The notes under the pieces are model-generated. The model was not told the origin of the DNA. It saw only the letters and a program-made list of their open reading frames with translations, and ran no database searches. Of a stretch of DNA of 64,000 nucleotides, positions 31,658 through 38,744 are shown piece by piece (position 1 is the first letter of the stretch; every line of letters begins with the position of its first letter). The stretch comes from Blastocatellia bacterium (GTDB lineage Bacteria > Acidobacteriota > Blastocatellia > RBC074), in NCBI GenBank assembly GCA_035714085.1, contig DASTMP010000285.1, forward strand, positions 3,659 through 67,658, written 5' to 3'. Position numbers and translations under genes: made by a program.

Positions 31658-34600
31658 CTAGAGTAAAGCTAGAATGAATCCTCGCTCTAATAATAACTCA
31701 ATGATCGCCGCGGCAATTTCATAAAGCCCAACGCTGGCCGCAGTGAGGGTTACGGCTCCCCGCAGCGACACTGCATTCACTTTTTGGGACTTGCGGCCTC
31801 GAGCCTGGTCTCGGGCATCAATTTCCACTTGAGATGCTTGAAATACTTGGTAGACGATTAAGCCTGGGGCTGGAGACTCAAAGACCGCCCACCCGTTCGG
31901 AGCGGGCACCACACCTTGAGTTCCACTAATCCGTTGAGGCCCGGGCACGGCGCCCACGCCTGCTTCATGAAGCGCCGCACAATCCACAGCAACTTTGGCA
32001 AGTCCAATCTCCCCCCATGCCCAAGGTTTGATCTCGTAGGCGAACATCGGTGGAAGGTGTTCTGTCGAATATTCGAAAATATCGGGTTTTCTCTCTCCGA
32101 GAGCTCGAGCGATTTTGTCCGGAGTGGAACCGAAATCGCTGGCAATCTTATCGGCGATAGTTTGCACGTTAATCGTATTTGTAAATACCAGGTGCGATGG
32201 CGACGGGTGCCTTCCTTTGTAGTAGTTCGCGATCGCCTCATGGACTGCATTTCCAACGTAGAAATGTATATCCTGATTGCCGGGCGGATCCCAATCTCCA
32301 AAATCAAACGGCGCCGCCGCCATCGCCAAGGCGTTTGGTAGCTGTACGAGGCCTGCGGCTACTGCCGCAGCGTAAATGCTGGCAATTGCGCCCTCCGCAG
32401 CTTCGTCGCGAAATCCGAGCCGCTCCAAGATGCGGATTTGATCAACAGCCTTCAGCCTAAGCATTAGTTGGCCGAGTGATCCGGCCCCTTCGACATCGTC
32501 CGCAGTGCTAATCGTTCGCCCCCCATGAGCTATGAGTATAGCCTTGGTAGCCGCCAGCACACGATCATCGACGATCATGTCCTTTGTCCGCTCATTGAAA
32601 AGCTCAAGCCAAGTCATTCCGTCAAGGCTCGGTCCCTTGGAAGCCAATTGCTCAAGAACCCCTGATAGATCGCTCCATTCAAGCTGCTTCAGCTTATCGA
32701 CAACGACATAGAAGTCGTCACCGCTAGGCGAAGACGGCTTACCCAAAAGTTCGACTACGGCCTGGTAAGCCTGTTCGCTGGCTGAACTCCCAAATCCTTG
32801 CGATGTCACGCTATCAGCCAATGCAGAATTCTTAACTGTAACCGACTCAATAAAGCCACTAGGGTCTGCCGTTGTGGCGGTCACGTCTGTGCCACCACGA
32901 TTTATCGCGTCCACGCCAGCTTTCGCAACAGATGGTATTGCCTGGCGTTTCTCCTTTTCTAACTCCGCCTTCTTCGTCTCCCCCCCATCGATTTGCTGTT
33001 GCAAATGGTCCTTGACGAGCTGACCTGCCTCCTGCTTAGTGATGTCCCCGGAATTCTTCGCGGCGGTGATCGAGTCCATGATACTGCCGCTGTTCTGTGT
33101 ATTGTGTTGCTGCATGGCCATCTCCTTGGCCATCTCCCCAAACGCTTTGGCGTTTTCCTGATTCGACAGATAGGTGCGCAAGACGTTTTGCTGGTTTGCG
33201 TCCAGCCCGGTAATGTCTTTGAAGACGCCGCTCTTGCCAAGCAGTTCGGACAATCCGGCTAAGCCGGCGCCAGGCGCGGGAGAGGCCGGCGCGTTTTGGA
33301 TATTGACGATCGGCGTCGCGAAATCCTTGAAGGCGGCCTGCCAGTCCGTGACGACGGGTGTCGGCGGCGTCACCGGCGAAATGGCTGTAGGCTCATCGGT
33401 GTTGGGGAACCTGGTCCAGTCTTGCAGACGATCCGTCTCGATTTTCTCACAGGCGTTGCAGACGCCCTGCACGGCTTCCGCGAACACACCTTTGGTGGGA
33501 ACACTAATACGATAGGGCTCGATCGGTGTCAGTGGTTGATAGTGGTCGAGCAGCGAAACTATCTCGGCGCCATCTCCGATTTGTTCCACGATGTACGACT
33601 GGCTTACCTTGTAGCCGGCCGCGACCGGAAATACCAGAGAATTGCCGGTGATGGTAATCAGTTCGTTCTTGACCACGGAGGCGAGGCTTCGCGATCCGAT
33701 CGGCAAGCCGAAATCGTTGAAGTTCTGAATATTGAAACCGTCCAGCAGCATAAAGCGCCGGTCAGGATCCAGGTTGTACCAAAGCGCCTTGTTGTAATAC
33801 TCGATACTGCTATTCAAGTGCTCGAGCAACTTATAAACCAGATAGGCGTCCTCTTTTCGAGGGCTCCGTTTTTCTTCGGCGTTTTCCGGAATGAAGAGGG
33901 CGGCGCCGGTGTCGTCAAACAAATCGTCGTTGACGTTGCCGCTGTATAGCACACCGTTGTAGTGGGCGGTGGAATAGGAGATCGTCAGATTCTCGACGTT
34001 GAAGGTAATGTAGTTCTTCAGGTCCCTGAACTTCTGGTCCCTCACAGTCAGATTTAGTTGCTGCGGGAGCTGATTTCTTTTTTTGGAAGTCGAGCCGGTC
34101 AGGTTCAACCGGATCACTCTCTCCCCGCCTTTGTACTTTGTTTCGCTGGAGAAGTCGGTCGAAAATTCCGAGAGAGTGATGTCGGATACTATCTTTTCAA
34201 AGATGAGCGGGGCGATGTCGTTATAAAAGATTGCGTCCCATTCGGAGATCAAGTTTCCCTTGAAGTATGCATTGAGCATTGTCAATACATCGGTGTAGCC
34301 CAACAGGTTCGCATAAATCGTCCATTGCTTCTTATCATCATCGTTATCAGCGAAGAAGTCTAATATAGAAAAAGTGGGACTTATAGATCCTAGGGGACCA
34401 ATTGAAATCGTCGCCGGAGGTTTGAAGTTTACGACCCGAATACATTCTGCCGGAGGGACGCTTTGATAGTTTGCATCCAAACTCATGAAAGCATCAAATA
34501 TGGCTTGTCTAACTAGCACTTCGTGTTGGGTGGTGGTGTATTGAAGCCCTGGTGGATGTGGTGGAGGATCAACTATGAGGGATAATCCGAATGTCAAAGG

Positions 34601-37859: not shown

Positions 37860-38744
37860 TTAATCCGGCTCTACAATGGGATCGATCCCCTGGAACTCGA
37901 GGCGGAGCAGCGCTCGGGGATCGCGGACGACGAACTGGATACGCTCGAAGACGCGAAAGCGAGATAGATGGTCATCCTGCTGCGTAAAACCAGTGATCGT
38001 GTCTTGACTGACCACCAGACTGGTCGCCTCGCCGCCGAGCGAGACGAGCAGGCCTCGATTCGCAGGGAGGCCGACAGTGGCATGAAATCCACCGGGGAGG
38101 AGCGGTTTCATACGGTCGGCCGCAGTCACCAGTGTGGGTGTCAGAGAGCGATGAGAATCGGCGTAGCGAGGCGGCGAGAGGAAGAGCGCATAGGGGCCAG
38201 GCTGACCCTGGGCTACAAGTCTATTGATGCCATCCGATACTGCGTCAAAATTTGCTTCCCCGAATATACCTGGGGGATTGCCTTCGGGTGGAACCACTTG
38301 TCTGGCCTGCGCAGCCAACCCCAAAAGCCCCTGGCGGGCCGACTCGCGGCGTTGGATATTGATCCCCGGCGGCAGCGGAACTGGCGACTCCCGCCCCCCG
38401 AAGAGAATGATCTCCTCGGCCATGGCAACCGACTTGGCGGCCATTCGGGCAAGAATTACCGCAGTGCCCAGCACAACTTCCTTCTCGATCTGGGTGTCGG
38501 TCAAGCTGAAGGATTGTGAGATCTCGACGAAGGGGATGGTGTTCTCATTGATGGTCAGGTCTTTGATGTCCACCGCGTCAACAGGGACACTGATGGCGTT
38601 GTCCATGGGGCGCGGCATAAAAACTTTGGCAGCGACCCGGATGCGATTCACCTCGTCGTGGACCGACTGGTCGATCTGGTCCCAGATATTCGTCTCCTTC
38701 CATGACTCCACTTCGTTTCGTTTGAGATTATTGTTTCCGGCCAT
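37860..38744 (-). CDS. Family-1 encapsulin (Linocin_M18-like) nanocompartment shell protein
   Basis: 294 aa, with an AAGGAGG RBS before the ATG at 38744. C-terminal half: GPYALFLSPPRYADSHRSL...GGFHATVGLPANRGLLVSLGGEATSLVVSQDTITGFTQQDDHLSRFRVFERIQFVVRDPRALLRLEF. It aligns position by position with T. maritima encapsulin (GPYTLVINTDRW...[53 protein letters not shown]) and with M. xanthus EncA (GPYAVVLSPRLYSQLHRIY). Confidence 0.75.
   Translation of the reverse strand: MAGNNNLKRNEVESWKETNIWDQIDQSVHDEVNRIRVAAKVFMPRPMDNAISVPVDAVDIKDLTINENTIPFVEISQSFSLTDTQIEKEVVLGTAVILARMAAKSVAMAEEIILFGGRESPVPLPPGINIQRRESARQGLLGLAAQARQVVPPEGNPPGIFGEANFDAVSDGINRLVAQGQPGPYALFLSPPRYADSHRSLTPTLVTAADRMKPLLPGGFHATVGLPANRGLLVSLGGEATSLVVSQDTITGFTQQDDHLSRFRVFERIQFVVRDPRALLRLEFQGIDPIVEPD

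Follow-up and report, generated by a model that had tools for sequence, protein, structure and literature searches.

Encapsulins are known as small metabolic and storage compartments that house peroxidases, ferritin-like proteins, desulfurases, and terpene cyclases, and they were first isolated as "bacteriocins" and culture-filtrate proteins. Polymorphic toxin systems, on which Zhang, Aravind and colleagues reportedly wrote in 2012, include Rhs/YD and CdiA proteins, the effectors of extracellular contractile injection systems (eCIS), and the MuF phage-head toxins, which ride inside an HK97-type phage head. The 2021 encapsulin census of Andreas and Giessen distinguished six cargo types in family 1, as a rule encoded immediately upstream of the shell gene; in it, 90 family-1 systems stayed unassigned, and sequences from metagenomes were not included (PMC8346489). 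Cargo is loaded via short targeting peptides or long, generally disordered targeting domains, according to a 2025 review (PMC12746231). Here we describe a pair of genes in a 64,000-nucleotide (64-kb) stretch of a contig from a Blastocatellia bacterium (DASTMP010000285.1, positions 3,659 to 67,658; hereafter, the window), in which the gene for an encapsulin-type shell protein is followed by that for a 225-kDa protein, the giant. On balance, we think it probable that the two make up a conserved module in which a divergent shell protein of the family-1 type works with a giant, polymorphic-toxin-like protein that is docked via a folded N-terminal address domain. Comparison among loci shows the module to be conserved and the giant to have, as predicted from its homologues, four parts, of which the core and the effector are widespread and normally occur alone.

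The gene pair and its translation signals lie in the window as follows.

37860..38744, minus strand: encapsulin-type shell gene (HK97-fold, Linocin_M18), 294 amino acids (aa) from its ATG; assigned by PF04454, NCBIfam, and alignment with EncA
38752..38758, minus strand: AAGGAGG ribosome-binding site of the shell gene, with a spacer of 7 nt to the ATG; read from the sequence
31658..37735, minus strand: giant gene, 2,025 aa from its ATG, with a polymorphic-toxin-like architecture; assigned as an intact open reading frame (ORF) with homologues
37741..37747, minus strand: AAGGAGG ribosome-binding site of the giant gene, with a spacer of 5 nt to the ATG; read from the sequence

A preliminary description of the window had proposed these two ORFs, on the minus strand with the shell gene first and an intergenic gap of 124 nt, as a unit. 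Both are present at those positions, and the same pair recurs in the same order in other loci. It had also given the two genes an identical AAGGAGG-N6-ATG start; the AAGGAGG is common to both, but the spacers differ. The open frame of the giant reaches upstream of its ATG to a GTG at 37804.

Against Pfam PF04454 (Linocin_M18), the 294-aa protein scores 66.1 bits, with a gathering cut-off of 24.3, which upholds its initial assignment as an encapsulin. Its placement in family 1 proper is less secure: the score against NCBIfam NF041155 (encap_f1, an equivalog) is 80.3 bits, under the cut-off of 100, and this alignment is strong in the C-terminal half only. The best solved relative is Myxococcus xanthus EncA (4pt2; E=7e-12), which is collinear over residues 136-286, and the next are two 282-aa encapsulin entries, 9fy6 ("Bacteriocin") and 6nj8 (encapsulating protein for DyP-type peroxidase). 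The preliminary description had the C-terminal part of the protein aligning closely with both EncA and the Thermotoga maritima shell; the former alignment holds, but the latter match is weak (E=0.04). PMC12746231 gives T=3 for EncA, T=4 for 6nj8, and T=1 for T. maritima, and the window protein scores far better against the T=3 and T=4 shells than against the T=1 shell. No PHROG matched it. An identical NCBI protein, from a Blastocatellia (Acidobacteriota) metagenome-assembled genome (MAG), is named "family 1 encapsulin ... [Blastocatellia bacterium]". On these comparisons, we treat the shell protein as a divergent member of the family-1 encapsulin type.

Comparison of the giant with 120 homologues divides it into the following parts.

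37382..37735, minus strand: N-terminal domain of ~118 aa (residues 1-118), present in 11 of 120 homologues
37040..37381, minus strand: linker of ~114 aa (residues 119-232), rich in Ala, Leu, Ser, and Pro, predicted to be disordered and not conserved among homologues
32816..37039, minus strand: conserved core (residues 233-1640), present in 120 of 120 homologues with 44-73% identity
35108..35125, minus strand: NHNHCH motif inside the core (residues 871-876), invariant in alignments of 31 and 46 sequences
33446-33460, minus strand: CxxCE motif inside the core (residues 1426-1430), invariant
31661..32815, minus strand: C-terminal effector module, variable (residues 1641-2025), with a hydrophobic tail at its end; present in 3 of 120 homologues
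31811..32323, minus strand: subdomain of that module resembling PD-(D/E)xK (restriction-endonuclease-fold) toxins (residues 1805-1975), with H1832, P1884-D1885, and E1901-I-K1903

A search of 5.8 billion proteins returned at least 147 homologues of the giant, 1,600-2,600 aa in length, and a scan of one genome per species found relatives of the core in at least 284 genomes. They are 50-70% identical across phyla and patchily distributed among Bacteroidota, Pseudomonadota, Myxococcota, Actinomycetota, Bacillota, Acidobacteriota, Cyanobacteria, and Verrucomicrobiota, and they also occur in two archaeal MAGs. The latter, assigned to Candidatus Methanoperedens (L054, 49% identity) and Nitrosopumilus (L076, 31% identity), reflect either cross-domain transfer or binning error. 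Distant core relatives, with ~30% identity, are carried on large plasmids or megaplasmids of culturable strains of Caballeronia, Psychrobacter (as "OmpA family protein"), Ruegeria, Ralstonia, and Streptomyces clavuligerus. Giants without a shell also occur in culturable Chitinophaga, Pedobacter, Corallococcus carmarthensis, Duganella, and Massilia. No conserved gene neighbor accompanies the giant family across the core-homologue loci.

The full-length giant matches nothing in Pfam, NCBIfam, PHROG, or PADLOC. Residues 1-1640 contain no Pfam or NCBIfam domain, no marker of type V, VI, or VII secretion systems, and no hydrophobic N-terminus, and a comparison of the core with trafficking domains in Pfam, NCBIfam, and the PDB found none. 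The preliminary description had reported no signal peptide in the giant and no domain that it could name; the architecture becomes recognizable once homologues are compared. By hand count, about 80 of the 120 homologues carry a Peptidase_C70 domain in their C-terminal region, often followed by Amidase_2, GH25 lysozyme, VanY, DUF2272, pesticin, OmpA, beta-lactamase-like, or tectonin domains. Because a constant scaffold is combined with shuffled C-terminal enzymes, the architecture of the giant, as far as domain comparison can tell, is that of a polymorphic toxin. A reading of the pair as a defense system was rejected, PADLOC being negative for both shell and giant.

AlphaFold2 was run on the giant with 46-sequence alignments in two segments, residues 1-1200 and 1101-2025, which reached an overall predicted local distance difference test score (pLDDT) of 56.9 and 59.7, respectively. 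Confident islands cover residues 235-460 (beta-sandwiches), 530-650 (a hairpin and helices), and 1130-1380, and the beta-sandwiches predicted in the core are Ig/transthyretin-like. The linker has a pLDDT below 50 and no secondary structure. Residues 660-1000, which include a Gly/Ser-rich loop, have the highest sequence conservation of the protein, yet their pLDDT is also below 50. A variable insert occupies about residues 540-650 of the core. The invariant NHNHCH and CxxCE motifs suggest a candidate metal site in the core. A profile of the giant family found a weak match among PDB sequences to a phage tail-fibre chain (E=0.006). Near the end of the core, a nearly invariant HLQQQIDGG motif (residues ~1577-1585; about 32960-33010) closes the conserved part, and the variable effector part follows shortly after. 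Other polymorphic toxins have demarcation motifs; if this one is their counterpart, it could mark a boundary for recombination or a site of processing.

The C-terminal module of the window giant has a wide distribution of its own. An exhaustive HMMER search of 1.84 billion representatives found it in 251 clusters at E<=0.001, with the similarity centered on giant residues ~1805-1975 and almost always placed C-terminally on otherwise unrelated proteins. A Pfam run on a sample of the module-bearing proteins identified a 3,269-aa SpvB/FG-GAP/TcdB/RHS protein (P0420), which is a TcB-TcC fusion and bears the module at residues 3071-3229; an Rhs protein (P0427) in which the module precedes a Tox-WTIP domain; an eCIS_core-domain protein (P0338); and PKD-repeat proteins. 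In an alignment of 49 sequences (19% mean column identity), three residues (P1884, D1885, and E1901) never vary, and conservation of H1832 and K1903 reaches at least 90%. One of these 49 family members matches Tox-REase-9 of Pfam (E=5e-5), and the window's own module has no match in Pfam or, as single sequence or profile, in the PDB; its region was modeled with a pLDDT below 50. The window module nevertheless carries the residues of the PD-(D/E)xK signature, and motif and context together make it a candidate nuclease-type toxin. Among the three roles that the preliminary description had offered for the giant (giant cargo, shell-anchored or displayed partner, toxin-like payload), a toxin-like payload fits best, given the polymorphic-toxin architecture and a C-terminal module common to Rhs/TcC and eCIS_core-domain proteins.

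The same domain content could be read differently, with the giant as a cell-wall remodeling or other housekeeping enzyme complex that is compartmentalized or regulated by the encapsulin and is not a weapon. The commonest accessory domains of the family (Amidase_2, GH25, VanY, OmpA, and PG_binding) are shared with autolysins and housekeeping enzymes of the cell wall, the invariant NHNHCH and CxxCE motifs could form a metal site for catalysis, and the window pair comes with no immunity gene, no secretion signal, and no marker of a known secretion system. Peptidoglycan, however, lies outside the cytoplasm, where encapsulins assemble, and close relatives exchange their C-terminal domains as polymorphic toxins do. 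Moreover, Rhs/TcC and eCIS_core-domain proteins also bear the window module, some relatives have pesticin domains, and the gene is patchy, 50-70% identical across phyla, and often found among integrases, transposases, and plasmid genes, which is unlike a housekeeping gene. We consider a housekeeping role improbable.

To define which giants are accompanied by a shell, we built a shell hidden Markov model (HMM) from more than 100 shell homologues and searched it against the six-frame ORFs of 77 core-homologue loci, 10 kb to each side. No encapsulin was found within 10 kb at 76 of the 77 loci. The single shell was at L021, which is also the sole locus of the 77 whose giant bears the N-terminal domain. 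Eight further carriers of this domain (P0027, P0026, P0034, P0009, P0033, P0056, P0072, and P0002) all have a Linocin_M18 gene directly upstream, and the order from shell to giant and the common strand are kept, with gaps of 8-127 nt, in all ten carrier loci for which gene calls or ORF coordinates could be used, namely the window, L021, and these eight. A profile search with the N-domain alone added L113, L114, and L115/L116. In L113, which came from a metagenome scan, the shell gene adjoins the N-domain carrier. In L114 (8141-15771), a 283-aa shell gene precedes a giant that is divided into four consecutive ORFs cut exactly at domain borders: the N-domain (153 aa), 1,008 aa (residues 221-1062), 654 aa (residues 1084-1614), and a variable C-terminal ORF of 378 aa. 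Here the N-domain ORF directly follows the shell gene although it is separate from the core; the split reflects either a real division into several subunits or frameshift errors of a long-read assembly. Shortly downstream of this module is an AbiEii/AbiEi pair. The last case (L115 99-1030 and L116 181-570) is a decayed remnant found on 14 contigs, in which a truncated 152-aa Linocin_M18 ORF is followed by a 129-aa ORF that consists of the N-domain only, without a giant.

Altogether, the shell gene lies beside the N-domain in 13 of 13 carriers, compared with 0 of 76 non-carriers (Fisher p=7e-16, with no correction for phylogeny). Most of the carrier loci come from metagenomic contigs. Because 76 of 77 core loci have no encapsulin within 10 kb, the encapsulin link belongs to the N-domain subset and not to the whole giant family, which rules out the idea that all giants are encapsulin cargo. 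The co-occurrence of giant homologues with encapsulins, on which the preliminary description had staked its proposal, therefore fails for the family at large and holds for the subset with the ~118-aa domain.

The N-domain has a set of invariant residues, W12, G14, D17, P19, P21, Y50, and C95 among them. When the 11 N-domain giants (that of the window and 10 carrier homologues) were scanned by regex, no GSL-type targeting peptide (e.g. SDGSLGIGSLKRS) was found at either terminus, and their C-termini are unrelated to each other; the N-domain is thus their only shell-specific feature. As this comparison of loci shows, shell association is set by the N-terminal domain and not by the giant's core or effector.

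Pairwise identities over the eight loci for which shell, N-domain, and core were all available provide a second line of evidence. The identity of the shells closely follows that of the N-domains (Spearman 0.85; Mantel r=0.84, p=0.0002), whereas it does not follow that of the cores (r=0.32, p=0.05). The giants of L114 and the window illustrate this: their cores are 74% identical, whereas their shells are 32% and their N-domains 33% identical. Because the two identities track each other and not the cores, the shell gene and the N-domain move and evolve as one unit that has been recombined onto different cores. Such co-divergence is what a specific physical interaction between shell and N-domain predicts.

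Could the adjacency nonetheless lack mechanistic meaning, as the remnant of a degraded prophage or other capsid-bearing mobile element, or as a pair that hitch-hiked from one ancestor? The carriers could share a single origin, the decayed remnant of L115/L116 exists, and some contexts are mobile. In L078 (1207-19398), the module lies beside a pair of PDDEXK_1 and Piwi (prokaryotic Argonaute) genes, two integrases, and a Tn3 transposase, and the P0072 contig carries it with ParA, ParD/ParE, and a plasmid Replicase. Against this, the pair was kept while the shells diverged to 29-37% identity and while the unit of shell and N-domain recombined relative to the core, and a parallel system, described below, follows the same logic with different partners. 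Phage genes are also missing: we found no portal, terminase, maturation protease, or tail genes in the window and no phage hallmark genes in the related shell loci. A core relative turned up in 1 of 50,697 phage records (L117; MT835996.1, "UNVERIFIED: Bacteriophage sp."), where a 1,459-aa ORF ending in DUF2272 is accompanied by a sodium:solute symporter (SSF) and DUF3311. None of the ORFs tested there is a phage hallmark, and the record is probably a contig of bacterial origin within a virome. The prophage or HK97 phage capsid reading was accordingly rejected, in agreement with the preliminary description, since the shell has no PHROG match, the window has no phage genes, and L117 looks bacterial. 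We regard a meaningless adjacency as highly improbable.

The parallel system came to light among closer relatives of the shell. The shells P0135 and P0144 share 47-50% identity with that of the window, and each is followed directly by an ORF of more than 2,900 aa. These ORFs contain PG_binding_1, ABC_toxin_N, neuraminidase-like, and TcA_TcB_BD domains, and SpvB/TcdB/RHS genes are close by. Scanning metagenomes with the shell alignment found 29 loci, 19 of them with enough downstream sequence, and in 18 of these 19 the ORF right after the shell gene has PG_binding_1 at its very N-terminus. The PG_binding_1-linked shells (L083-L112), counted at 20 loci in all, are 36-55% identical to the window's. 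The bodies that follow PG_binding_1 are TcA-like (L095, L110, and others), a phosphoesterase of PF04185 (L101), a GH13 alpha-amylase (L099, L103), or unassigned (L108, L112); the TcA-like ORFs are 2,500-3,300 aa long and 280-370 kDa in mass. Examples of this type are the following.

L095, 2635-11106: PG_binding_1 with a TcA-like body
L101, 10001-13861: PG_binding_1 with a phosphoesterase body
L103, 1424-4824: PG_binding_1 with a GH13 alpha-amylase body
L084, 8001-16846: PG_binding_1-type locus with TcB/TcC-type genes nearby

Because one N-terminal domain is common to unrelated proteins whose genes all directly follow a shell gene, PG_binding_1 looks like a cargo-address domain. By this comparison, related shells appear to use it as a second address domain for TcA-like toxins and hydrolases. 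The window giant is not itself a TcA relative: neither BLAST nor an HMM found similarity between it and the TcA-like ORFs of L083 and L084, and ABC_toxin_N, neuraminidase-like, and TcA_TcB_BD were not found in it by Pfam. A broader proposal would make one whole branch of these shells not a metabolic nanoreactor but a protein-only packaging or delivery vehicle, a capsid-derived "toxin capsule", for giant toxins and exo-enzymes without signal peptides, released as loaded particles. Its clients would be polymorphic giants, TcA-like toxins, phosphoesterases, and amylases, chosen by the ~118-aa domain or by PG_binding_1. We put this forward tentatively, as a possibility; if true, it would ground the old report of Linocin M18 as a bacteriocin.

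For the window itself, we favor a mechanism in which the N-domain would serve as a folded address domain and, by way of the flexible tether of ~114 aa, dock the giant to the shell protein. The giant would most likely be loaded into the shell lumen during assembly, as in other encapsulins, and its packaging there is predicted from this likeness. A sealed or concentrated hold might then be kept on a dangerous PD-(D/E)xK nuclease-type effector, which has no adjacent immunity gene, until the particle is released. What the shell would gain for the cell, be it storage, protection of the producer, or particle release, is speculation. A protein of ~225 kDa fills roughly 300-400 nm3, and several copies would fit a T=3 or T=4 shell. 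Family-1 shells are given 60, 180, or 240 subunits and a diameter of about 24-42 nm in PMC10402063 and PMC8346489.

Several observations weigh against this proposal. Closed-shell assembly of the window protein is assumed, and the protein falls under the family-1 equivalog cut-off noted above. The contact between shell and giant is proposed from comparison among loci, and the model of the N-domain that would mediate it, predicted to be beta-rich, is of low confidence (pLDDT about 50-65). A cargo of 225 kDa is far above the size of any known encapsulin cargo. The TcA-like partners of the related shells, if they form pentamers as known Tc toxins do, would be difficult to accommodate in a shell. 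In a neighbor-joining tree, the PG_binding_1-type shells cluster, but the N-domain-type shells fall into two groups with the PG_binding_1-type L112 among them. The 13 carriers may stem from one or few acquisitions, in which case the Fisher p overstates their independence. The toxin role of the giant family is itself suggested by domain content. Finally, most shell-linked giants bear C70 and cell-wall enzymes, which are harmless in the cytoplasm, so that sequestering a dangerous cargo is not a general rationale.

Some of these points would suit a shell protein that binds the N-domain without containing the giant, either as an adaptor or chaperone, in the way of the adaptors whose genes lie upstream of type VI secretion system effectors, or by displaying the giant outward as a spike on a tail-less bacteriocin-like particle, with its beta-sandwich and cell-wall-hydrolase domains turned toward the target. 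A small upstream partner gene that co-varies with the N-terminal domain of an effector equally fits adaptor-effector pairs. Very large partners (225 kDa here and the TcA-like ORFs elsewhere), the poor fit of pentameric TcA-like proteins inside a shell, the Ig/transthyretin-like beta-sandwiches of the core, which are typical of surface-binding modules, and the weak profile match to a phage tail-fibre chain all point the same way, as does the predicted fold of the N-domain, which sets it apart from the known targeting peptides and disordered targeting domains (PMC12746231). On the other side, every characterized Linocin_M18 protein assembles into a closed shell that binds its cargo on the luminal side (PMC8346489, PMC12746231), the window shell is full-length and collinear with EncA, and the long flexible tether behind the N-domain resembles cargo linkers. 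We hold an adaptor or display role to be a serious though less likely possibility, and we retain address-domain docking to an encapsulin shell as the favored account.

The surroundings of the pair contain the following features.

31477..31497, minus strand: terminator-like, GC-rich hairpin followed by a T-rich tract, at the 3' end of the two-gene unit
31381-31464, plus strand: tRNA-Leu(CAG), oriented opposite to the gene pair
38998..39570, plus strand: extracytoplasmic function (ECF) sigma gene, divergent from the shell gene (PF07638, E=1.6e-61)
39586-42372: Ser/Thr kinase-TPR gene (Pkinase and TPR), 928 aa, directly after the ECF sigma gene

The ECF sigma gene and the tRNA-Leu are the flanks that the preliminary description had named. 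The hairpin, read from 31497 to 31477, sits between the giant's stop codon and the tRNA-Leu. No credible immunity gene was found between that stop codon (31658) and the hairpin and tRNA-Leu; the sole ORF past the giant, at 31215-31592, overlaps the tRNA-Leu on the opposite strand. The ECF sigma factor may regulate the pair, as a putative member of the system, and the 253-nt region between its gene and the shell gene holds a GAAC...CGTC-like stretch. The pair of sigma and kinase genes is not kept beside the module in other loci; BTAD or response-regulator genes take its place there. Ordinary chromosomal genes make up the remainder of the window, encoding a BlaR1-type peptidase, a prolyl oligopeptidase, transaldolase, LarA, an MFS transporter, MacB/FtsX permeases, and a hydrolase. 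Three paralogous MacB_PCD/FtsX permease genes (60-2375, 54514-56964, and 58821-61253), unrelated to the shell-giant pair, lie within the 64 kb; several such paralogues fit the pattern of Acidobacteria genomes.

In a full-text literature search, we found no paper with both encapsulin and Tc toxin, and linocin was absent from the best-ranked papers on ABC toxins or TcA. The search likewise found nothing relevant that links encapsulin or linocin with polymorphic toxins, papain-like cargo, peptidoglycan hydrolases, PG_binding_1, or novel-cargo surveys, and the giant family did not surface in it, although the family was not queried directly. We thus found no published description of the shell-giant pairing, in which the partner class, the reversed gene order, and the predicted folded address domain would be new. 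The window and roughly 30 related loci point to a branch of encapsulins with giant, toxin- or extracellular-type partners, which are encoded downstream and co-evolve through a folded N-domain with their shells. If confirmed, this would add a new cargo class and loading principle and, for engineering, a folded portable tag for very large clients. It would also suggest a storage or release route for some giant toxins that lack secretion signals, raise anew the question of why encapsulins first turned up as "bacteriocins" and culture-filtrate proteins, and highlight a 284-genome family of ~2,000-aa polymorphic proteins whose 1,400-aa core has no recognizable fold.

The closest relatives of the window system are the family 1 encapsulins, represented by M. 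xanthus EncA, T. maritima, and Brevibacterium linens Linocin M18. Common to both are an HK97-fold Linocin_M18 shell of about 290 aa, a two-gene operon with one dedicated partner and no phage genes, and a terminal address element joined to a flexible linker. The partner of known family 1 shells is usually, though not obligatorily, encoded upstream (PMC8346489), whereas the window-type partner is downstream in every locus. It is also, at 225 kDa and with a toxin-like architecture, outside the six known cargo classes, and its shell-specific element is not a GSL-type peptide but the ~118-aa N-terminal domain, which is predicted to be folded. Family 2 encapsulins, which package cysteine desulfurase or 2-methylisoborneol (2-MIB) synthase (PMC12746231), resemble the window system in having a long N-terminal address element and not a short C-terminal peptide. 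Their targeting domains, however, are extended and disordered and their cargos metabolic enzymes, whereas the window N-domain is predicted to be beta-structured and the shell is of the Linocin_M18 type.

On the toxin side, the Tc (ABC) toxins are tied to the window by related shells (36-55% identity) directly upstream of TcA-like genes and by the window module, which occurs as the payload on a TcB/TcC fusion; the giant itself differs in having no sequence similarity to TcA. With polymorphic toxins, the giant has in common a large conserved scaffold, interchangeable C-terminal toxin domains, and a module that is also found on Rhs/TcC and eCIS_core-domain proteins. It differs from them in a core without a known trafficking domain, in the absence of an adjacent immunity gene, and in its carrier, which would be a DNA-free encapsulin in place of a phage or secretion system. 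Conceptually, the MuF toxins come closest to the window giant.

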